In this document: positions 726 through 44,829 of the stretch, in pieces
How the letters are laid out: every line of letters starts with the position of its first letter
How positions within the stretch are numbered: the first letter of the stretch is position 1
Sequence record: PQ295796
Direction: 5' to 3' (one strand)
Origin: Escherichia phage vB_Eco_Lzu_P3
Length of the DNA stretch: 44,829 nt
Program-made: the position numbers and the translations under genes
The notes under the pieces: model-generated
The model's database searches: none
What the model saw: only the letters and a program-made list of their open reading frames with translations
Told to the model about the DNA's origin: nothing

Positions 726-755
726 ATATTAACACCCGCTATTTAAGCGACCAAA

Positions 756-5479: not shown

Positions 5480-5568
5480 GCTATCCCCCTGGGATTGTGG
5501 CAAAGCGGGCCACCCGCTTGACTTCACGCCTTAATATTATCAGCGATAAAAATAATCGCAAAATTCGC

Positions 5569-5615
5569 TTGCATTGCGGATGTTGGTTGCATTATATTGG
5601 TTGCACACCAACAGA
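5569..5615 (+). promoter_or_regulatory. Promoter TTGCAT-N18-TATATT, with two TTGGTTGCA elements flanking and overlapping the -10
   Basis: gcTTGCATtgcggatgTTGGTTGCAtTATATTGGTTGCACACCAACA. The -10 plus downstream element is almost identical to the 16.5-kb promoter. Confidence 0.5.
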
Positions 5616-5633
5616 GATATGAAGGAAGACAAA

Positions 5634-5948
5634 ATGACTAACATGACCGTAGCAACTCCAGTAGACGCCGCAATGGCCCGTTTCAATAAAGCTACCGTAG
5701 CGAATACCTTTACCTTTCACGCAATGCGTAACGCGGAAGCGCTGAATCTGTGCCAGAGCATGAATGCATCTGAAGCGGCAAAAGCGGCGATCAACTCCGC
5801 GACATTCGATAATCCGGCTTGCGGCCTGGTTCCGGCATCTTTCATAAACGCCCTGGTCGAAGCCTTTAACGATTTCATGTGCGTCGATGCCGTTGAAGCT
5901 GTATGTGCTCGCTTAACCTCAACCGGCGGCAACATCAAATTTAACTAA
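5634..5948 (+). CDS. Hypothetical protein (first gene of reverse-oriented cassette)
   Basis: Plus-strand ORF inside a minus-strand structural block. Start taken at ATG 5634 with GAAGGAAG RBS. A sigma70-like promoter with TTGGTTGCA elements lies upstream. Confidence 0.5.
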   Translation: MTNMTVATPVDAAMARFNKATVANTFTFHAMRNAEALNLCQSMNASEAAKAAINSATFDNPACGLVPASFINALVEAFNDFMCVDAVEAVCARLTSTGGNIKFN

Positions 5949-5987
5949 ACCAATCGGGGCGAAAGCCCCTAAAATGAGGACATAAAA

Positions 5988-6752
5988 ATGAGACTGACGA
6001 AAGACATTAAAAATCAGATCCTGGCTAACATCCTGCGCGACCACGAAATCGCGGCAGAAGCCAAACAAATCATGATGGACTCTCGCGACCTGGCGTACGC
6101 AATCACGCTGGACTGTATGCCGGAAGGCATTCGCACGTTCGCAGCGCTCCGCGAGCATATCAAGGCAATCCACGATGACCAGTCGCAGATGTACGGCGTC
6201 AGCGTATACACCAACAAGGCGACGTATAGTTATAACACCGACCGCCCGAAGGGTATCGGCAGCGTTTACGACGCCACCTTTGAAATCAACGCAGGCGGCA
6301 ATGTTCGCACCTTGTCCTTGAGCGGTGACGGTCGCCAATTCCGCGTGCATCGCGGATACTGGGAAGAGAAATATATGAATAAGCTCGCGCCTGATCTCGG
6401 CGATATCGTTCCGGGGTTCGAGACAGTTATGCTCGCGTCAGTGTGCGAAGTGGACGAGGAAGGAAAAGCGCTGCCGATATATCTCCCACGCGGTCGCGTA
6501 GACTACCCGGCGGACCATGACTTCTGTAAGCGCCTGGACCGCAACGACAAGGCACGTCGCGAGTTGCGTGCGAAGTATGACGCGTTCAAACTCACCGTTA
6601 CCGGTGTACTGGACCTGCACAATACTGACAAGAAGCTGATTAAGGCATGGCCTGAAGTTGAGCAATTCATACCATACCCGGACAAGCCAAAATCCACGGC
6701 GGTGGCGCTGGACGTGAAAACACTCAACGAGATTTGCGGCATTCCGCGCTAA
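5988..6752 (+). CDS. Hypothetical protein (254 aa, second gene of reverse-oriented cassette)
   Basis: ORF with AGGA RBS, followed by a bidirectional terminator at 6753..6786. No motif I could recognise. Confidence 0.6.
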   Translation: MRLTKDIKNQILANILRDHEIAAEAKQIMMDSRDLAYAITLDCMPEGIRTFAALREHIKAIHDDQSQMYGVSVYTNKATYSYNTDRPKGIGSVYDATFEINAGGNVRTLSLSGDGRQFRVHRGYWEEKYMNKLAPDLGDIVPGFETVMLASVCEVDEEGKALPIYLPRGRVDYPADHDFCKRLDRNDKARRELRAKYDAFKLTVTGVLDLHNTDKKLIKAWPEVEQFIPYPDKPKSTAVALDVKTLNEICGIPR

Positions 6753-11755: not shown

Positions 11756-11885
11756 GATATAAGCCCTTTTGTTCATATGTGCCGACCATCGGCAACATAG
11801 GAGACGGCCCTGCCATCTAAGGGGGATTATAACAGGCACAAAAAAGCCCACCAAATCGGCAGGCTGGGAGGCTTACCGGTTGCCG

Positions 11886-13170: not shown

Positions 13171-13199
13171 CTTTATTACTCCTCTCGTTGATTGGTCGC

Positions 13200-13229
13200 A
13201 GTATGGCGTCTATGTTGGTTGCAAGTCAA
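13200..13229 (-). promoter_or_regulatory. Promoter TTGACT-N18-CATACT (minus strand), with TGCAACCAA in the spacer
   Basis: Lies upstream of the candidate micro-ORF and the phosphoesterase/terminase genes. Confidence 0.35.
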
Positions 13230-15871: not shown

Positions 15872-16137
15872 CTGCTCAGTCTCCAGTGTTTGCCTACCCG
15901 CTCGACTGCGGGCTTTCGGCGTAATGTAATACGTATGCCAATTGGTTGCAAGGACGTTTTTATGGCAAGTCCATGCTCCCTGGCGAACTGGCGCAAGTAG
16001 CGGGTCTGCGTTAATGGCTTCACATCGTAGCGATAGCTCCAGAACACAGAATCGCCCTCAACCGCATTCTGCGCCCATATTCGTATGCAATGCAGTGGAA
16101 TATGCCACGAAAGCTGTTTAGCTCGTCTGCGGTCCAT
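15868..16137 (-). CDS. Hypothetical basic protein (89 aa)
   Basis: AAGGGG RBS 5 nt upstream of ATG 16137. Arg/Lys-rich. Contains a TTGGTTGCA element internally. Confidence 0.4.
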   Translation of the reverse strand: MDRRRAKQLSWHIPLHCIRIWAQNAVEGDSVFWSYRYDVKPLTQTRYLRQFAREHGLAIKTSLQPIGIRITLRRKPAVERVGKHWRLSR

Positions 16138-16146
16138 TTTGGCCCC

Positions 16147-16452
16147 TTATTTCGCAAGCTGGGCGAATAGTTCACGTTGTGCTGCAATCCGGGCGACGTT
16201 TGTCGCTGCCGTCTCACCGATCCCGAAGCGATACGCCAGGCGCTCGCGGGCAAATGCCCTCGCATATTCGCAGATTGCCACGCGCAGCGGTTCCAGTTCG
16301 TCCAGGCTGGCAAACATATCGTCGAACGCGTTTATGATTCCCTGCTGGGCCAGGATAACAGCCTGGCGCGCGTCATCTGCGTTGCCGTCTGTGTGCTTCG
16401 CTTCGTACATCTTCGCCACCGCCATTGCGTAATTCCAGATTAATTTTTTCAT
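16147..16452 (-). CDS. Hypothetical protein (101 aa), first gene after the 16.5-kb promoter
   Basis: GAGGA RBS 7 nt upstream of ATG 16452. Preceded by a predicted promoter with operator-like elements. Confidence 0.5.
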   Translation of the reverse strand: MKKLIWNYAMAVAKMYEAKHTDGNADDARQAVILAQQGIINAFDDMFASLDELEPLRVAICEYARAFARERLAYRFGIGETAATNVARIAAQRELFAQLAK

Positions 16453-16465
16453 TGTTCAGTCCTCA

Positions 16466-16513
16466 TGTTGGTGTGCAACCAATCTAGCAGGGTGCCAGGC
16501 GGAATGCAACCAA
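16466..16513 (-). promoter_or_regulatory. Promoter TTGCAT-N17-TAGATT (minus strand) with an ATTGGTTGCAcACCAACA operator-like element overlapping -10 and +1
   Basis: Minus-strand read: attaatATTGGTTGCATtccgcctggcaccctgcTAGATTGGTTGCACACCAACAtgaggactgaacaATG. Confidence 0.5.
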
Positions 16514-16668
16514 TATTAATCATGCGCATGAAAAAGTCGATCGCTATCTGCTGTGACTGCAAACTGCATTTTCCGCCCACCATTCAGCAACTCGCATTGG
16601 TTGCCTAGTTCAGTGACGACCGCAATCCGCAACATGCTGCCGTGTATTTTGCAATCCCGGATTTTATG

Positions 16669-16838
16669 CAGTCTCAGACGAGGGGGGCCATCGACCCCCG
16701 TCTAGTCTGAAAGACTGGGGGTTGTCCCGCCTGTCCCGCTCCCCTCCAGGCCGCGTCATCCGGGGGTGGGACGGGGTGCTGTCCCGCTTTGTCCCGCCCC
16801 TGGTCTGTCCCGCTTTTTGTCCCGCTTACTTTATGCAG
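16669..16838. repeat. Iteron element A: 70-bp GC-rich hairpin block plus six direct TGTCCCGC iterons, then an A+T-rich segment with TTATGCAG boxes
   Basis: Read directly. 16669..16738 matches 44397..44466 with one mismatch. TGTCCCGC starts at 16723, 16732, 16780, 16790, 16806 and 16818. Confidence 0.85.
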
Positions 16839-16931
16839 TTTTATTGCATAACTATGCACTATATTCACACTACACGGCAACCAATGCGACCAGCTAAAAA
16901 CACTCAAAATGGCAACCAATGCGCGCAAAAA

Positions 16932-19196
16932 TTAATCTTTCAGGTCATCATCGGTCGCCGAAAGCGTGATGGGGATATCCGATTTGATGACTAAATTCGA
17001 CGACCCATATATGGCCCCGGTGTGCGGATCTGTATAGAAACCAATCACGCCGCGCTCGACCATATCGTCGATTGCCTTCGTCGAAGTGCCACCCTTAGCG
17101 AGTCCCGCCTGGCGGACGATTGCCGATTTACTGAAACCAGTATGGTCCGGGTTATCTTCCATCAGTTTTTCCAGGGCCGCATAAAGCACTTTCTCTTTTT
17201 CGGTGCGCGGACCGGCGGCGTTTTCTTCCTTAACTGCGGCTTTTCCTGCGGCCTTCGCTTGTTCTATAGCGAACGGAGCCAGGGCGACCGGTACGAGGTA
17301 GAGAGTCTCGTCGCGTGGCGTGGATGCAATTGGCTTGACGTCCCAACCGGCAACCACATCCCCGAAGTCTGGCCCGGTGCTGGTGGACTGGTGCGACGCG
17401 AATGCCTCAGACTTGCGTAGATCAACCTTAACTTTGCACTTGAGCAGGACGAAGCCACGCGGCGCTTGCTTGATGCCGTTACGTGATTTTTCGTGGTACA
17501 GGTTCAATTGTCCGGGCTGGTTGTCGTCCGGCTGTTCCAGGAAGAAAGCAGAATCGACAGCACCATGCAGCGCGCCGGACCCGCGTGGCGTTCTGCTGCC
17601 GTTTGCCCCTTTCGCCGGGTGGTGGATGACGCCCGCACTGCCGCCTGTATTTTCCGCGATGGCTTTCAGCGCTTTGACAACTTCACCCATATCGCTGGCG
17701 TTGTTCTCGTCGAACGGTTTAGCATCGGCGGACCGCAACGCAACAGTCTGGTTGAGTGAGTCGAACGCCACCAGGCCGACCGGCTCGCCGTTAGCAGTGC
17801 GGTTGATATAGCTGATAACTTCGCGCAAACCGGACTTGCTGGTGATATCCCATCCGCGTGACTGCAGATCGATAATGTGCAGCTTGTCGAGGTCGTGCTC
17901 GTATTTAATCTGCAATGCTTCTTTGCGCTGGTTAGAGGCTTCACCACCTTCCGCGTCGAAATAGAAGCAATGAGACTGGACGACCTTCGCACCACCAAAC
18001 GGAATACCGGCGGCAACCGCACCCATCTGCCCAAGCACATAGAAAGACTTACCGATATTCGACTCACCCGCCATATACCAGGTCGATTTAAAGTTAATCA
18101 GACCTTCGATGATCGGGTCGTGCTTACTGAACAGCGCAACCGGCTCGTTATCCAGATCCGCATCGGTGCACACGCCATATTCTTCGCCGTCGCCCACCGC
18201 ATCAACAATGTGATCATATAAGGATTCGACTTCCTCGTCGTCCAGACCTGGCAGGATGGCGGCGATTTGCTTACGCGACATGTTGTGCGGCTCGACGTTC
18301 AGGTGGTCCGGTATCCCGATAAGACGTAGCGCCAGGTGCTGGTGTCTATTTAGCTCCGAGCAACACTCGTTGCCGGTGTGCATACACTTGAAACGGATCT
18401 CGCCATCCTTGACCATGATAGCCGTCGACCCTTCTCCGCTGTGCAGATGTTCGTTCGGGCACGGCACTTCATAACCGCGACCGGAAGATAACTCCTCGAA
18501 TCCTGCCTGGAAGCACCAGTCCAGAATCCCGTCCGCCACTGCGTCGTCGCCCTGGGTAAGCTCGCGGCGTACTTCCTCCTTCTCCACCCCCAGCTTATCC
18601 GCCAGGCGAAGCAGACGACGCACATTAGCGCGCTTGCCGTAGTGGCACTTAATGACAGACTGCTGGTGTGGCAGGTACATAAGACGGTTTGTGTCTTTCG
18701 TGCAATCGTCGAAGTCAACATCCGACAGACCAAGTTGGTCTAACAGCGCGTACTGCACGCGGCCCAGGTCTTCCGCCGGGACAGGCTTGTCAGTGAGTAC
18801 CAGGAAGCGAGCGCAACGCGTGCCGCCTTTCAGTGGGTGACGGTCGCCGGTTGTGGTGTGGAATACGTGCTCCAGCCCCGCGTCTATAAAAGCCTTACGG
18901 CAGCGGCGTAGGGTGCGGGTGTCGGTACGGTCGATATCGAAGAACAGGATCGAGCGGTCCACCGCACTGGTCTTACGACGTAAGCCGTCACTGGTATATG
19001 CCACGATGCCATCGGCCTTACGCTTGCGGCGTGCATACTCGGCTTTATCTTCCGTCTTGTTGATATGCACCGAGGAGATTTCTTTCGCGTCATTGATAAA
19101 TTCGAAAAATTCATCGGTGGTCATCTGGAAGTTTTCCGCCCTGGCTTTTTCGCCTTTTTTAGCGGGTTTTGTTACAGCGAATTTAATTAAGCTCAT
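16932..19196 (-). CDS. DNA primase-helicase with C-terminal putative DNA-binding domain
   Basis: 754 aa. N-terminal primase-like region, a Cys/His cluster (CPNEHLH…CMHTGNECC) and a P-loop (GESNIGKS) in a RecA-like ATPase region. C-terminal segment is winged-helix-like. Confidence 0.7.
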   Translation of the reverse strand: MSLIKFAVTKPAKKGEKARAENFQMTTDEFFEFINDAKEISSVHINKTEDKAEYARRKRKADGIVAYTSDGLRRKTSAVDRSILFFDIDRTDTRTLRRCRKAFIDAGLEHVFHTTTGDRHPLKGGTRCARFLVLTDKPVPAEDLGRVQYALLDQLGLSDVDFDDCTKDTNRLMYLPHQQSVIKCHYGKRANVRRLLRLADKLGVEKEEVRRELTQGDDAVADGILDWCFQAGFEELSSGRGYEVPCPNEHLHSGEGSTAIMVKDGEIRFKCMHTGNECCSELNRHQHLALRLIGIPDHLNVEPHNMSRKQIAAILPGLDDEEVESLYDHIVDAVGDGEEYGVCTDADLDNEPVALFSKHDPIIEGLINFKSTWYMAGESNIGKSFYVLGQMGAVAAGIPFGGAKVVQSHCFYFDAEGGEASNQRKEALQIKYEHDLDKLHIIDLQSRGWDITSKSGLREVISYINRTANGEPVGLVAFDSLNQTVALRSADAKPFDENNASDMGEVVKALKAIAENTGGSAGVIHHPAKGANGSRTPRGSGALHGAVDSAFFLEQPDDNQPGQLNLYHEKSRNGIKQAPRGFVLLKCKVKVDLRKSEAFASHQSTSTGPDFGDVVAGWDVKPIASTPRDETLYLVPVALAPFAIEQAKAAGKAAVKEENAAGPRTEKEKVLYAALEKLMEDNPDHTGFSKSAIVRQAGLAKGGTSTKAIDDMVERGVIGFYTDPHTGAIYGSSNLVIKSDIPITLSATDDDLKD

Positions 19197-19206
19197 TGCC
19201 GTTGCC

Positions 19207-19536
19207 TTATTTGGAAGTTTTATTATTGCGTACCCAGGATCGCACGGTGCTCTGATTAATTCCTGTCAACTCCGCGATCATTGCCCATGACTTCCCCTCA
19301 TCACGTAAACGGATAACCTGTTTTTTGTATTCTTCCATTTCCTCATTGTGCTTTTGCAGCTTGCTTGCTGCCGTACCGTTGAGTAATTCCAGCTTCGCGC
19401 GCAATTCTTTCTCGGTAAGTCGCAGACGTTCGATTTCAAATAGCACCGCACCCACGGCATCGGTATATGCCCAGGACCGGCTTGTCTCACTGCAAACAGT
19501 CTTAGTTAACATTTCGATTGCGTCGTCGATATTCAT
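19207..19536 (-). CDS. Putative HTH transcriptional regulator (first gene of leftward early operon)
   Basis: 109 aa. C-terminal segment GKSWAMIAELTGINQSTVRSWV resembles an HTH. GGAGA RBS. A palindromic operator-like site lies in its own leader. Confidence 0.5.
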   Translation of the reverse strand: MNIDDAIEMLTKTVCSETSRSWAYTDAVGAVLFEIERLRLTEKELRAKLELLNGTAASKLQKHNEEMEEYKKQVIRLRDEGKSWAMIAELTGINQSTVRSWVRNNKTSK

Positions 19537-19550
19537 TGTTCTGTCTCCGG

Positions 19551-19596
19551 TTGGTTAATGACCAACGAAACTACACCTAAAACCGCGGGGTGTCAA
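19551..19596 (-). promoter_or_regulatory. Leftward early promoter TTGACA-N17-TAGTTT, followed by the palindrome TTGGTtaatgACCAA (19551..19565)
   Basis: Read on the minus strand; the palindrome overlaps the predicted transcription start of the HTH regulator gene. Confidence 0.45.
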
Positions 19597-19666
19597 CTTC
19601 TTTGGGATATTGAAACGGGCGCGCACGCGTGTAATAATACTCCCGTCTCATTGTCTCTTATTGGTT

Positions 19667-19701
19667 AGCGCCGTCGCATTTTGCTTCGGCGCTTTTTTTT
19701 T
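19667..19701 (+). terminator. Intrinsic terminator-like hairpin plus T9 tract, immediately upstream of the rightward early promoter
   Basis: AGCGCCG-(13-nt loop)-CGGCGCT followed by a T9 tract. Confidence 0.4.
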
Positions 19702-19711
19702 AAATTAGTTG

Positions 19712-19740
19712 TTGACTCCCTTCTGCAACCAATCTAATAT
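19712..19740 (+). promoter_or_regulatory. Rightward early promoter: TTGACT-N17-TAATAT, with TGCAACCAA in the spacer
   Basis: Near-consensus sigma70 hexamers with 17-bp spacing at the head of the plus-strand early block. Confidence 0.55.
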
Positions 19741-22365: not shown

Positions 22366-22600
22366 AGTATTCGCATTCTTATTGATGATTATGCTCGGTG
22401 CGCTGGGATTTATCCTGCATTGCGTGCAAGGCGTGTTAATGGTCGCCTGGATGATTCGCCATCCGACACTCTGGCCGGACGATGGGTATAGTGTCGCTGC
22501 CGCCGACTGGGTGGCGAAGAACATAGACCGACCACCGTTAAGCTGGATCGAGAACGCCGTCAGCTACGTGACCAGAAATCTTTTTAATAAAAGTGCTTGA
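22358..22600 (+). CDS. Hypothetical small membrane protein
   Basis: Hydrophobic N-terminus (VFAFLLMIMLGALGFILHCV). GAGGA RBS. Overlaps the upstream stop. Confidence 0.4.
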   Translation: MNKVFAFLLMIMLGALGFILHCVQGVLMVAWMIRHPTLWPDDGYSVAAADWVAKNIDRPPLSWIENAVSYVTRNLFNKSA

Positions 22601-22635
22601 CCGCTTAGGCGCAACCAAGTAGATTAGCAACCAAG
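22597..22635 (+). promoter_or_regulatory. Promoter TTGACC-N17-TAGATT, with GCAACCAAG elements in the spacer and just downstream of -10
   Basis: Upstream of the SSB-like gene. The motif is a variant of TGCAACCAA. Confidence 0.4.
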
Positions 22636-26187: not shown

Positions 26188-26462
26188 CCCCCGAAGGCAA
26201 GATCCAAAGTCACCTTATGAAGCTGGTGAAAGCTGTCGGCGGATTCTGCCGTAAAGTGGCATGGGAGGGGCGCGCGGGTGCGCCCGATCTGATTATCATC
26301 ATCAACGGCAGAATAGTTTTCGTCGAAGTGAAGCGCCCCGGTGGTAAACCGAAGCCGCACCAGGTACGAGAACATGAGCGAATGGCCCGCCGCGGTGCGG
26401 ACGTTCGCGTCATCGACAACATAGCCGACTGTGATTTATTGGTTGCTGAATTGGTCGCGTAG
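26184..26462 (+). CDS. VRR-NUC domain nuclease
   Basis: 92 aa with PD-(D/E)xK-type motifs (GAPDLIIIINGRIVFVEVKRPGGK…Q) typical of VRR-NUC. Confidence 0.65.
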   Translation: MTPEGKIQSHLMKLVKAVGGFCRKVAWEGRAGAPDLIIIINGRIVFVEVKRPGGKPKPHQVREHERMARRGADVRVIDNIADCDLLVAELVA

Positions 26463-26502
26463 CGGTATAGTGGGCCGGTTAGCACTATCGAGGATTTTAG
26501 AA

Positions 26503-29395: not shown

Positions 29396-29428
29396 TTGGT
29401 TGCATAATCATATTGGTTGCATTATATT
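29396..29428 (+). promoter_or_regulatory. Promoter TTGCAT-N17-TATATT, with tandem TTGGTTGCA elements (29396..29404 and 29413..29421)
   Basis: Read directly, upstream of the gene at 29476. Confidence 0.5.
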
Positions 29429-29475
29429 GAGGGTGTCCGGTTTGGACGCCCTTTTTAATACCTGGAGACAACACG

Positions 29476-30617: not shown

Positions 30618-31084
30618 AATTACTGATTTGCGATTTGGATGGCGTTATTAACGGTTCAAGCGATGCGCGTGCCGACTTGGTGCCTGGCATAAAAACTAAA
30701 TCCACCTTTTGGGCGAAGTGGCACAAGGCGCACGTCCGCGAAGACCTTAACATGGATATGCTGCCGCTACTGCGCATGTATAAAGAGCAAGGCTTCGAGA
30801 TCGCGTATCTGACCAACCGGCAGCGAGAATGTTGGGACACCACCGCCGAGCAATTGGAGGTCTTCCCAGTAGGCCGGTTGTTTATGCGCCACATGCTGGA
30901 CGACACCCCGCCGCCTGAGTTTAAAGCGTGCGCCGTGTTCAAAATGGTATGTTACGCGGACGTGTCTGAACTGGTCATCATTGAAGATTGCGAGAAGAAC
31001 ATCGCGGCAATTCGTCGGGCGTGTAGTGATTTGGTCCCGAAAATTTACGCAATAAACGTTGCAAAATTCACTTGCAACCAATAG
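30614..31084 (+). CDS. HAD-superfamily hydrolase (putative nucleotidase/phosphatase)
   Basis: N-terminal motif I LLICDLDGVI (DxDG). GAGAG RBS. ATGA overlap with the upstream gene. Confidence 0.5.
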   Translation: MKLLICDLDGVINGSSDARADLVPGIKTKSTFWAKWHKAHVREDLNMDMLPLLRMYKEQGFEIAYLTNRQRECWDTTAEQLEVFPVGRLFMRHMLDDTPPPEFKACAVFKMVCYADVSELVIIEDCEKNIAAIRRACSDLVPKIYAINVAKFTCNQ

Positions 31085-31101
31085 GTTGGTTGCACTATAG
31101 T
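31072..31101 (+). promoter_or_regulatory. Promoter TTGCAA-N18-TATAGT, containing the inverted repeat TGCAACCAA-N4-TTGGTTGCA (31073..31094)
   Basis: A perfect 9-bp inverted repeat separated by 4 bp, embedded in the promoter. Confidence 0.5.
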
Positions 31102-32350: not shown

Positions 32351-34174
32351 TTATTTCTCCGCTAACTTACTTTCTAACGCCTCAACCTTCGCCGCCAAAT
32401 GCTGAACAGTAGCGATGAGGTCAAGTAGCAGGACGTTTTCGTCTAATGCCAGAAACTCTTTACCCGTTGCGCTGGTGTACTTACGAACATACTGCGGGTC
32501 GATCTCTTCCAACTGCTGCGCGATAAAACCACGTCTGACCGTTTCCTTTTTGTCGTAGTTATAAACAAAGGAAGAGTATTCCATTGCCATAACGTTATCG
32601 AACGCAACTTGAGTGCCGATCCTGGCGATATCATGCTTCAGCGCCCTGTCGGACACAGGGGACTTTGAGAAAAGATAGTTAACAGTCCCGGAGTTGTTGC
32701 CAAAGGTAATTTCGTAGCCTTCTGGGTTAAAGGTAGTATTTCGAATGATATCGCCGTTAGGCTGTACTCCTGACGCCATATCATAGTCAAAGACCTGCGA
32801 AATCATAGCGTGAGGGTGGGACGACGCCGATTCGGGGTGAATCAACGCCCCGAACGAAATAAAGTTACGCCACCCGCCACCTGTCGTACCAGTGCCGCCG
32901 CCGACAAAACCTACGTGACCCGCGTATTGACCGCTATTCCATGTATTCGCGAGGGTGACGTAGGTATTACCCGGCGACGCCGCGGTGGACGATGGATTCA
33001 GTCCTTTGTTGAAAATGATCTTGCCATCATATTTAAAGTCCCACGACGGCGAGGTCACCGGGTTGAGGGCGTTAACGGTCGCCAAACGGGTCCAGGCGTC
33101 TACGTTATTACGGCCTTGAATCTGTAGCGACGTTCTGTATTTTTCGGCCCCAGCAACGATCACAGATGAGTCAAATCTACCGCCGTATACTTCTGTGCCA
33201 TTCGCCGGATCTGAAGCGTAATTATTGCGTAATCCCCAAAGTCCCACGTCATCAAGGCCGCGCCACACCCACCCTTTAGTCGCAGAGTCGAGAGGGTCGA
33301 CTGGATCCGCTCCTACGCGAAGCGGTCCTGACGGCATAAGGTTAGCCCACGACGCACTTTTGTCCGCAAGCCCGGCGAGGTTGCCGGATTTGGTTAGCAG
33401 ATTGTCGGGGTTTACGCTTTGCGCCCATTCTTCGGCCTGATCGCGAAATCCCTGCGCGGCAGTGCTGGCGGCTTGCGCTTCAGCCTTCGCGGCGTTGGCC
33501 TCGTCGCGAATAGCGCCGGTGTCAGTCTTGATCTGGTTAGTCTGGTCTTTGATCGCCTGCGTATCAGCCTTAATCTGGTCAGTCTGCGTTTTGATGGTAT
33601 TAGTAGCGTCGCGAATGCCTGCCGTCTCTGCCTTAATCTGATTGGTGGCGTCGCGAATGCCTGCCGTCTCAGTCTTGAAGCCTTCGGCCTCATTGCGAAA
33701 TCCTTGCGCTGCTGCTTCAGATGCCGCGGCTTGTTGTTGCAGGTTGCGCATTTCAACGGGGTCAACTTCCTTCAGCAATTGCGACAGATAGCCCCACGAC
33801 ATGCCCTGCATAACTTGCCCGTTCGGCAGCGTTACCGTGACTTCTTCTTCGTCTCCGAAGATGGCACGCCAGTTGTTTTCGTCCGCGATCAGCATACGGA
33901 GCGCTTTCTGCGCCTGGACGGTGACACCCATAGTGGCAAGTGACATGGTATCGCGCTTAACGCCATCCCACGCAAGACCTGCCGCCGTTGGGCCGTCGAA
34001 CGGCAGCACAAGCGTAAGCGCGGTGTCGCTTTCGACGGACGCTATCGCAACAGTGTAAGGCACTTGCCCTACTACCAGCGATAAGAAGTCGCCAGCTGTA
34101 AACGAGGTAAACGTCGTGCCTACCCCGACAACCGCCTTGCTGTTATTCGTTACGGATAGTGTACCCGCTGCCAT
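32351..34174 (-). CDS. Side tail fibre protein with C-terminal intramolecular chaperone (peptidase S74-like) domain
   Basis: Start at ATG 34174 with GAGGA RBS. Contains repeated …TAGIRDATNQIK…-type units. The C-terminus (…ALKHDIARIGTQVAFDNVMAMEYSSFVYNYDK…GFIAQQLEEIDPQYV…) matches the auto-cleaving chaperone domain found on phage tail fibres and endosialidases. Confidence 0.65.
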   Translation of the reverse strand: MAAGTLSVTNNSKAVVGVGTTFTSFTAGDFLSLVVGQVPYTVAIASVESDTALTLVLPFDGPTAAGLAWDGVKRDTMSLATMGVTVQAQKALRMLIADENNWRAIFGDEEEVTVTLPNGQVMQGMSWGYLSQLLKEVDPVEMRNLQQQAAASEAAAQGFRNEAEGFKTETAGIRDATNQIKAETAGIRDATNTIKTQTDQIKADTQAIKDQTNQIKTDTGAIRDEANAAKAEAQAASTAAQGFRDQAEEWAQSVNPDNLLTKSGNLAGLADKSASWANLMPSGPLRVGADPVDPLDSATKGWVWRGLDDVGLWGLRNNYASDPANGTEVYGGRFDSSVIVAGAEKYRTSLQIQGRNNVDAWTRLATVNALNPVTSPSWDFKYDGKIIFNKGLNPSSTAASPGNTYVTLANTWNSGQYAGHVGFVGGGTGTTGGGWRNFISFGALIHPESASSHPHAMISQVFDYDMASGVQPNGDIIRNTTFNPEGYEITFGNNSGTVNYLFSKSPVSDRALKHDIARIGTQVAFDNVMAMEYSSFVYNYDKKETVRRGFIAQQLEEIDPQYVRKYTSATGKEFLALDENVLLLDLIATVQHLAAKVEALESKLAEK

Positions 34175-34191: not shown

Positions 34192-34224
34192 TTGGTTGCA
34201 ATCCTGGTCGAGCGGTGTAATACT
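34192..34224 (+). promoter_or_regulatory. Promoter TTGCAA-N17-(TGt)AATACT, with TTGGTTGCA at the -35
   Basis: Upstream of the lipoprotein gene; divergent from the tail fibre gene start. Confidence 0.4.
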
Positions 34225-44328: not shown

Positions 44329-44396
44329 TATGCAGTCCCCTTTTCTATGCAGTTGCCGTCGTTCATTGTATCAGCGAATTTACAACAAACCTTATT

Positions 44397-44711
44397 CAGT
44401 CTCAGACGAGGGGGGCCATTGACCCCCGTCTAGTCTGAAAGACTGGGGGTTGTCCCGCCTGTCCCGATCGGCTAAAACCCGCGGCAGCACTGACGGGGAC
44501 GGGGTGCTGTCCCGCTTTGTCCCGCCTCATTCTGTCCCGCTTTCTGTCCCGTTTGTATTATGCAGAAAAACCGCATAGCTATTCACTTTTAAGGGGCGGG
44601 GCAGATCGGGACAGCACCCCGTCCCGCTTTTAGTTTATGCAATGAAAGTGAGTATATATGCGGTTTAATGGTGGCGGGACAAAACGGGACGTCACGTTTT
44701 GTCCCGCTTCG
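44397..44711. repeat. Iteron element B: paralog of element A with at least eight direct and three inverted TGTCCCGC-type iterons and A+T-rich TTATGCAG/TTATGCGG boxes
   Basis: Direct copies start at 44451, 44460 (degenerate), 44508, 44518, 44533, 44545 (degenerate), 44620 (cGTCCCGC) and 44700. Inverted GCGGGACA-type copies are near 44606, 44674 and 44685. Confidence 0.85.
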
Positions 44712-44829
44712 TTATGCGGGGTTCTGTCGCGCCATTTCGTCCAGCGCAACGCGTTCCATTAGCTTGATATCTTTAAACGCACGTTGCGCGTTTTCGATTC
44801 CGTGCATCTTAAATAACCATTCCAGTACG

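Follow-up and report, generated by a model that had tools for sequence, protein, structure and literature searches.

The region at 16466-16513 of Escherichia phage vB_Eco_Lzu_P3 carries two copies of a 9-mer, TTGGTTGCA, that recurs elsewhere in the genome near predicted promoters. This raises the question of whether the sequence is an operator for a phage protein, a part of the promoters themselves, a replication element, or a site for a host factor. The stretch of DNA analyzed here (the window; 44,829 bp) is a near-complete genome of a Dhillonvirus, i.e., an HK578/SSL-2009a-like lytic siphovirus of E. coli, with 89-95% identity to many database records and in reversed orientation relative to the SSL-2009a RefSeq record. 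Projection of the 67 SSL-2009a RefSeq CDSs onto the window provided the gene map, according to which intergenic DNA amounts to 3,103 bp, or 6.9% of the genome. Dhillonviruses are among the most common lytic coliphage isolates (more than 170 phage-collection records match the region), and members form part of the BASEL collection and feature in studies of phage therapy and defence systems. We found no description of Dhillonvirus promoters, temporal regulation, or the 9-mer in the searchable literature, and the genome papers on YD-2008.s, vB_EcoS-B2, and eiAU mention neither promoters nor the motif. Likewise, no report of a motif-based regulatory circuit in Dhillonvirus was found in the literature searched.

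An exhaustive count on both strands gave 12 exact copies of the 9-mer, compared with 0.46 ± 0.66 expected, and none of 100 shuffled sequences reached this number. Allowing one mismatch yields 27 sites (11.6 expected), the 8-mer TTGGTTGC occurs 20 times (1.9 expected), and the commonest 10-mer of the genome is ATTGGTTGCA. The positions given in the initial annotation were all recovered, with the small correction that the copy placed at 19725 starts at 19724. The same is true of the variants GCAACCAAG (22611 and 22627) and CGCATTGGTTGCC (16593, 16876, and 16911), the inverted repeat at 31073..31094, the near-palindrome TTGGTTGCAcACCAA (5597 and 16468), and the palindrome TTGGTtaatgACCAA (19551-19565) in the leader of a gene for a helix-turn-helix (HTH) protein. 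Intergenic DNA holds 10 of the 12 exact 9-mers and 15 of the 20 TTGGTTGC copies, a clear excess over coding DNA given the small intergenic share and in keeping with what had been noted by eye. The two remaining exact copies overlap the last codons of a gene (31073) or lie within a gene (15942). The motif is solidly real as a cis-element. Two other 8-mers, ACGGCAGC and CGCTGCCG, occur 28-32 times in the window; their abundance is probably a compositional or codon-usage effect and not a signal, since they are also top k-mers of the outgroup phage FSL SP-031.

The suggestion that half-sites are paired to accommodate a dimeric protein fares less well. Most sites are single asymmetric or directly repeated 9-mers, and the spacing of paired copies is irregular (12, 13, 14, 16, 17, 23, 31, and 35 bp). 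The arrangement TTGGT-N5-ACCAA is found at three sites (0.07 expected), and the copies at 31073 and 31086 constitute the sole inverted-repeat pair. The coordinates of the copies and of the predicted promoters with which they are associated are collected in Table 1.

Table 1. Motif copies, predicted promoters, and associated features in the window (promoters given as −35 hexamer, spacer in nt, −10 hexamer).
Feature	Position	Strand	Remarks
Exact TTGGTTGCA copies	5583, 5597, 13215, 15942, 29396, 29413, 31086, 34192	+
Exact TTGGTTGCA copies	16474, 16505, 19724, 31073	-
TTGGTCGC, possible weak or degenerate copy	747..754	-	downstream of major tail gene; 17 nt upstream of the hexamer in TGtTAATAT; kept in L001-L004 and L023
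Scaffold gene promoter (predicted)	5542..5534	-	TGaTAATAT
P1 (predicted)	TTGCAT 5569-5574, 18 nt, TATATT 5593-5598	+	would drive cassette 5619-6752
P1 spacer copy	5583..5591	+	invariant in 4 genomes
P1 second copy	5597..5611	+	overlaps −10/+1; extends to near-palindrome TTGGTTGCACACCAA
Terminase/packaging operon promoter (predicted)	11834..11826 (region 11826-11865)	-	TGtTATAAT; directly after terminator, upstream of small terminase gene
P10 (predicted)	13229..13200	-	TTGACT-18-CATACT; directly after a terminator
P10 copy, inverted	13223..13215	-	TGCAACCAA, in spacer
P10 copy, inverted	13200..13192	-	TGCGACCAA, at +1
Copy inside gene hyp56	15942..15951	-	supplies TTGCAA −35 of predicted internal promoter
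Internal promoter in hyp56 (predicted)	15951..15923	-	TTGCAA-17-TACATT
P2, flagged locus (predicted)	16474..16513	-	promoter of small-gene and lysis operon
P2 copy	16513..16505	-	supplies −35 TTGCAT
P2 −10	16486..16481	-	TAGATT, after hypervariable spacer of about 16-17 nt
P2 copy	16482..16474	-	overlaps −10/+1; extends to TTGGTTGCACACCAA
Region B left bracket	16593..16605	+	CGCATTGGTTGCC variant; invariant
Region B right bracket	16888..16876, 16923..16911	-	two CGCATTGGTTGCC variants; inverted vs 16593
Candidate regulator gene, 109 aa	19207..19536	-	immediately upstream of helicase-primase gene, 10 nt gap
HTH gene promoter (predicted)	TTGACA 19596..19591, 17 nt, TAGTTT 19573..19568	-	read from sequence
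Palindrome TTGGTcattaACCAA	19565..19551	-	about +1, between −10 and SD; ATG at 19536
P7, rightward replication operon (predicted)	19712..19740	+	TTGACT-17-TAATAT; scanner-found
P7 copy	19724-19732		inverted, in spacer adjoining −10
P8 (predicted)	22597..22635	+	TTGACC-17-TAGATT; scanner-found
P8 copies	22611-22619, 22627-22635		inverted variants GCAACCAAG, in spacer and at +1, respectively
P6 (predicted)	26439..26471	+	TTGGTTGCT supplies −35 TTGCTG; −10 TATAGT 26466-26471
P6 degenerate copy	26451-26459	+	TTGGTCGCG, in spacer
P3 (predicted)	29396..29428	+	copy 29396-29404 supplies −35 TTGCAT; −10 TATATT 29423-29428
P3 second copy	29413-29421	+	in spacer, abuts −10
P4 (predicted)	31072..31101	+	TTGCAA-18-TATAGT; inverted copy 31073-31081 supplies −35
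P4 forward copy	31086-31094		abuts −10; pair forms inverted repeat TGCAACCAA-N4-TTGGTTGCA
P5, cor/membrane-protein cassette (predicted)	34192..34223	+	copy supplies −35 TTGCAA, 16 nt, TAATAC; divergent from tail-fibre gene start at 34174

At the flagged locus, P2, both copies are invariant among 17 unique Dhillonvirus sequences while the approximately 16-17 nt that separate the first copy from the −10 are hypervariable. The copy in the fast-evolving gene hyp56 is, together with the downstream predicted −10, an invariant island in 16 unique sequences. Over nine intergenic regions, 80% of the motif columns are invariant compared with 55% of the other intergenic columns (Fisher p = 6e-9, which, being derived from related sequences, is not a true probability). 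These data support that the copies are under purifying selection. The strongest evidence suggesting selection is the retention of the motif in the metagenomic relatives L025-L027, which share about 70% DNA identity with the window in conserved genes and whose intergenic DNA is unalignable. There, the top 9-mer is still ATTGGTTGC, present in 10 copies in 20 kb, at equivalent promoters and with the same architecture. Counterparts of the P3, P6, and P10 sites are present in L026, and equivalent sites are seen in both L026 and L027, as anticipated for a motif kept at orthologous promoters; outside genes, BLAST matched L026 to the window only over a 28-bp segment (96%), which covers the P7 copy. 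Since the ninth base is less fixed in L025-L027, the core is better written (A)TTGGTTGC, with A preferred at the ninth position.

The motif also accompanies the HTH gene. All six complete genomes examined that encode the HTH protein carry 11-12 exact copies, and in three partial, more divergent loci the motif is the top k-mer. Dhillonvirus "rolling," a divergent member, encodes the protein and carries 12 copies. In the outgroup Salmonella phage FSL SP-031 (L024), the helicase-primase of which is 44% identical to that of the window, the same layout is found, i.e., a divergent control region followed by a small HTH gene and the helicase-primase gene, but the HTH protein is of an unrelated XRE-type and the 9-mer is at chance level (one copy). 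This co-occurrence is effectively one phylogenetic event, a single contrast. FSL SP-031 has repeated 12-mers of its own, AATAAATTATTC and AATAATTTATTC, three copies each, which might be operators of its XRE-type regulator in the equivalent slot.

Phages of E. coli, Shigella, and Sodalis retain the motif, as could be the case if the sites bind an enterobacterial transcription factor or nucleoid protein that is exploited by the phage. Moreover, TTGGT-N-ACCAA has what we take to be a resemblance to the half-sites of GntR/FadR-type host regulators. However, the motif is no more frequent than expected by chance in the syntenic outgroup phage of Salmonella, the invariant asymmetric 9-mer exceeds the length of a GntR-type half-site, and the motif tracks a lineage-specific phage HTH gene that has a copy in its own leader. 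We know of no host regulator with such a site, nor did we find one in the literature, and we consider a host factor to be a very unlikely binder.

Where are the copies positioned relative to the promoters? Every intergenic copy lies within −35 to +5 of a predicted sigma70-type promoter, which upholds the claim of the initial annotation that the copies overlap sigma70-like core promoters, and they do so at variable positions and in both orientations. About 10 variants share this placement with the exact copies. In the first class, the copy constitutes the −35, with TTGCAx 16-18 nt before a −10-like hexamer (P2, 16513; P3, 29396; P5, 34192; P6, 26439), or does so in the inverted orientation (P4, 31073; the internal promoter in hyp56, 15942). 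In the second class, the copy is in the spacer and abuts the −10 (5583, 29413, and 31086; inverted at 19724 and 22611), and in the third, it overlaps −10/+1 (5597 and 16474; inverted at 22627 and 13192). The −35 and −10 hexamers are separated by 16-18 nt and are kept in relatives; the spacer bases outside the motif vary. A consensus scanner independently identified four of the overlapping promoters (19712+, 22597+, 31072+, and 13229-), although its total promoter count is not above shuffle expectation and its predictions are leads, not proof. The other motif-overlapping promoters were read from the sequence by eye, at lower stringency and with 16-18 nt spacers.

The first class of sites raises the possibility that the motif is a lineage-specific extended −35 (TTGG followed by TTGCAx) that is read by the sigma70 holoenzyme or by polymerase helped by the HTH protein; in the latter case, a sigma-region-4-like HTH protein would act as a surrogate −35 reader or activator. 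The six class 1 promoters and similar ones in L026 would be accounted for in this way, and nine of the 12 exact copies are oriented as the downstream gene. In addition, the HTH domain scores above the Pfam threshold for Sigma70_r4_2 (27.7 vs 25.7 bits), and the fold matches of the protein include sigma factors and LuxR/GerE domains. This scenario, however, leaves aside the copies of the second and third classes, which show no −10-like hexamer 16-18 nt downstream when inspected by eye; for the same reason, we rejected the idea that the spacer and +1 copies are −35 elements of tandem promoters. It also does not fit P7, P8, and P10, where a near-consensus −35 (TTGACT, TTGACC, and TTGACT, respectively) is already present and the copies are inverted in the spacer, or the three copies at region B (see below), which have no fixed orientation. 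Moreover, neither a phage RNA polymerase nor a full sigma gene is annotated, and the projected annotation and the Pfam/PHROG scans revealed no phage RNA polymerase, sigma factor, or MotA/AsiA-type factor, only the region-4-like HTH domain. An extended −35 is thus an unlikely explanation for the motif as a whole. A sigma54 reading (TGGCAC-N5-TTGCA) was also discarded, as judged by eye, on account of its spacing.

The alternative put forward in the initial annotation, a phage-specific promoter consensus, accordingly holds in part: TTGCA serves as a predicted −35 at about six promoters, but the motif's distance from the −10 or the start is not constant, nor is its orientation. Because the position is variable, both orientations are used, a good −35 can already be present, and copies bracket region B, the predicted sites fit better as operators than as a fixed promoter consensus. 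The element is probably dual-purpose, with its TTGCA part doubling as the −35 at about six promoters, since TTGCAx is the only plausible −35 there.

Two non-coding regions, B (16600-16935) and A (44329-44829), have in common a near-identical core of about 170 bp with a GC-rich hairpin (16672-16712 in B, 44400-44440 in A) and a TGTCCCGC iteron array. Region B comes after the helicase-primase gene; region A is flanked by the tail chaperone genes and the tape-measure gene. The two match the "repeat regions A/B" annotated in the record of Sodalis phage SO-1 and may be replication origins. The HTH gene is followed, after 10 nt, by the helicase-primase gene, and three conserved ATTGGTTGCC copies bracket region B with its hairpin and iterons, which would be consistent with the motif being primarily a replication element, i.e., boxes for an initiator or helicase-loader protein. 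Yet some 17 of about 20 copies are found at promoters spread over 30 kb, only three are at region B, the near-identical region A has none, and the clustered repeat in these regions is TGTCCCGC and not the motif. The right-bracket copies are present but flipped in L026. We regard a primary function in replication as highly improbable; a dual role of the binding protein as regulator and origin accessory factor is possible and would be compatible with operators at promoters.

Which protein would bind these operators? Of 20 small proteins compared with Pfam and PHROGs, the 109-aa protein encoded immediately upstream of the helicase-primase gene is the only one recognizable as DNA-binding. It matches HTH_23 (4.6e-7) and Sigma70_r4_2 (2.1e-6), both above threshold, and the match to HTH_3 (XRE/Cro fold) is weak (E = 0.009, below threshold). 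The AlphaFold model (pLDDT 86.5) shows its fold class, a continuous helix spanning residues 21-79 and then a C-terminal HTH (84-107). The long helix would suit a coiled-coil dimer. Fold searches returned only generic tri-helical HTH domains (resolvase/Hin, LuxR/GerE, sigma region 4, and IstA) and no match to the whole protein (all E > 0.8), and the sole sequence match among solved structures, a designed repeat protein, was uninformative. The family comprises 24 clusters confined to this phage group, with nearly invariant C-terminal 60 residues and N-termini that vary or are swapped. Two weak hits obtained when looking for distant homologs in IMG/VR (L021 and L022) were set aside, being unrelated AT-rich contigs or a homing-endonuclease-like protein. 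No covariation between protein and site was seen, as the HTH domain hardly varies within the family and provides no informative contrast. The initial annotation spoke of operators of a phage-encoded dimeric regulator. Promoter overlap, selection, the site in the HTH leader, and co-occurrence all speak for the operators and the phage regulator; for "dimeric," the predicted 59-residue helix is the single argument.

The leader of the HTH gene itself carries the palindrome TTGGTcattaACCAA, 14 of the 15 columns of which are invariant. We assign it to the motif family because a standard GCAACCAAT copy occupies this position in L026, after TTGCAC-17-TATATT. The presence of a motif copy or palindrome in the HTH gene leader in two divergent lineages, i.e., the window and L026, suggests conserved autoregulation. 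On the other strand, the stretch 19610-19706 (+) contains a strong, fully conserved predicted promoter (TTGAAA-17-AATAAT and an upstream TG). Downstream of it come roughly 60 conserved nt and then, just before P7, an intrinsic terminator (stem 19668-19693, T9; dG -16.2, z -3.5). L026 has the same order of promoter, short transcript, terminator, and P7, with a different sequence. The stretch is a candidate small RNA or terminated leader, and its layout is reminiscent of lambda PR'-tR'; it has no match in Rfam, and a scan of the entire window gave zero matches at gathering thresholds.

Collectively, these observations lead us to propose, with a probability of roughly 0.55, that (A)TTGGTTGC(A) is the operator of a phage DNA-binding protein, most likely the 109-aa helix-plus-HTH protein, and that it is most likely repressive and autoregulatory. 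In this model, about 20 copies would be built into the −35, the spacer, or −10/+1 of sigma70-type promoters in front of almost all non-structural transcription units. These are the promoters of the replication operon, others inside the replication module, and those of the small-gene/lysis operon, of two inserted cassettes, and of the gene for the regulator itself. Another three copies would bracket repeat region B, the putative origin. Early in infection, host RNA polymerase would fire the motif-bearing promoters; as the regulator accumulates, it would occupy the sites and most likely lower the activity of these promoters, its own included. That the sites are most likely repressive is suggested by their overlap with the polymerase footprint. 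The packaging and structural operons would escape, because their predicted promoters, upstream of the terminase and scaffold genes, are of the extended −10 type and have no core copy. Both lack a recognizable −35, and both are retained throughout the genus. A tentative inference is that the regulator lowers −35-dependent non-structural promoters while −35-independent late ones continue.

Several observations do not sit easily with this model. Asymmetric sites with irregular pair spacing fit a simple symmetric dimer poorly, and in CHD5UKE2 the recognition helix is divergent (INRSTIRQW vs INQSTVRSW) yet the motif is unchanged. P10 is located upstream of the exonuclease gene on the route to the terminase genes, such that its inclusion in blanket repression would have to be explained separately. 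The use of TTGCA as a −35 could account for part of the conservation, and about 15 of the 20 small proteins scanned, which have no assigned function, could include the binder instead. More far-reaching, and to our mind rather unlikely, is a version in which the 109-aa protein is the master early-to-late switch, its about 20 sites silencing every −35-dependent promoter including its own and those at region B coupling the switch to replication. Even bolder would be a version in which the protein takes the place of sigma region 4 on the polymerase, with TTGGTTGCA serving as the surrogate −35 that it recognizes.

Some features adjoining the motif-bearing promoters deserve a comment. The flagged promoter P2 and both its copies overlap hyp54, a 37-aa ORF annotated in the SSL-2009a RefSeq record (16452-16562, -); given this overlap and a middle part that is hypervariable among relatives, hyp54 is probably not a gene. 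At the P3 −10 region (29423-29455, +) and at 734-709 (-), a terminator-like hairpin starts 1-2 nt after the −10 hexamer and the predicted start falls within its 5′ arm; transcripts from upstream would terminate there, and locally started ones could not form the hairpin because they would begin inside the 5′ arm. Terminator and promoter would thus overlap in a compact arrangement. The cassette that P1 is predicted to drive (5619-6752, +) consists of two genes inserted within the minus-strand structural module. The product of the second one is an Nmad5 (nucleotide modification associated domain 5) protein (Pfam 2e-61), which hints at a DNA-modification or anti-defence function.

The map of operators, candidate regulator, and predicted promoters offers a testable model of the Dhillonvirus transcription program. 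It also calls for correction of the annotation of the 109-aa gene, currently "transposase," "resolvase," or "recombination nuclease inhibitor gamma," and hyp54 serves as a warning, being a RefSeq ORF that is probably a promoter-overlapping non-gene. For Dhillonvirus engineering, the sites might be used as compact regulated promoter parts.

How does the proposed circuit relate to known systems? It would belong to a known kind, phage regulator operators that overlap promoters, with the binder and the direction of regulation in this case being what we infer. Any likeness to P1 C1, lambda Cro/CI, or T4 MotA lies in the mode of working and not in membership, since homology to these proteins was not found. 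As with T4 MotA, a 9-bp asymmetric phage motif would replace the −35 at a class of promoters read by host polymerase. However, MotA boxes are fixed in both position (about −30) and orientation and require AsiA, whereas here position and orientation vary and many copies are in the spacer or at +1; no MotA or AsiA homolog was detected in the Pfam/PHROG scans of the 20 small proteins. Thermus phage P23-45 gp39/gp76 and T4 AsiA act by binding RNA polymerase or sigma. There, −35-dependent promoters are shut and extended −10 late ones stay on, which resembles the situation of the terminase and scaffold operons with their predicted TGnTATAAT-type promoters devoid of the core motif; the proposed agent here would instead bind DNA operators, and the switch itself is our conjecture.

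The likeness to lambda Cro/CI concerns a small HTH protein encoded beside a divergent control region, sites over sigma70 core promoters, and a putative autoregulatory site. The role proposed here, turning down early transcription in lytic growth, would be Cro-like, and it is a true XRE/Cro-type HTH that occupies this gene slot in the outgroup FSL SP-031. Lambda operators, however, are 17-bp dyads clustered at two loci, while the sites in the window are mostly asymmetric and distributed over at least 10 loci, and the 109-aa protein is not an XRE/Cro-fold HTH_3 protein. The temperate phage P1 maintains lysogeny through C1 (283 aa), which has a 17-bp operator. Here we have a strictly lytic phage, a protein of 109 aa with a different fold, and a 9-bp core. 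In both cases, however, one phage protein would act on many asymmetric operators throughout the genome, single or paired and in either orientation, that overlap the promoters of many operons, including those for replication functions. By this analogy, the P1 C1 repressor with its dispersed asymmetric operators appears to be the closest functional analog of the regulator proposed here.
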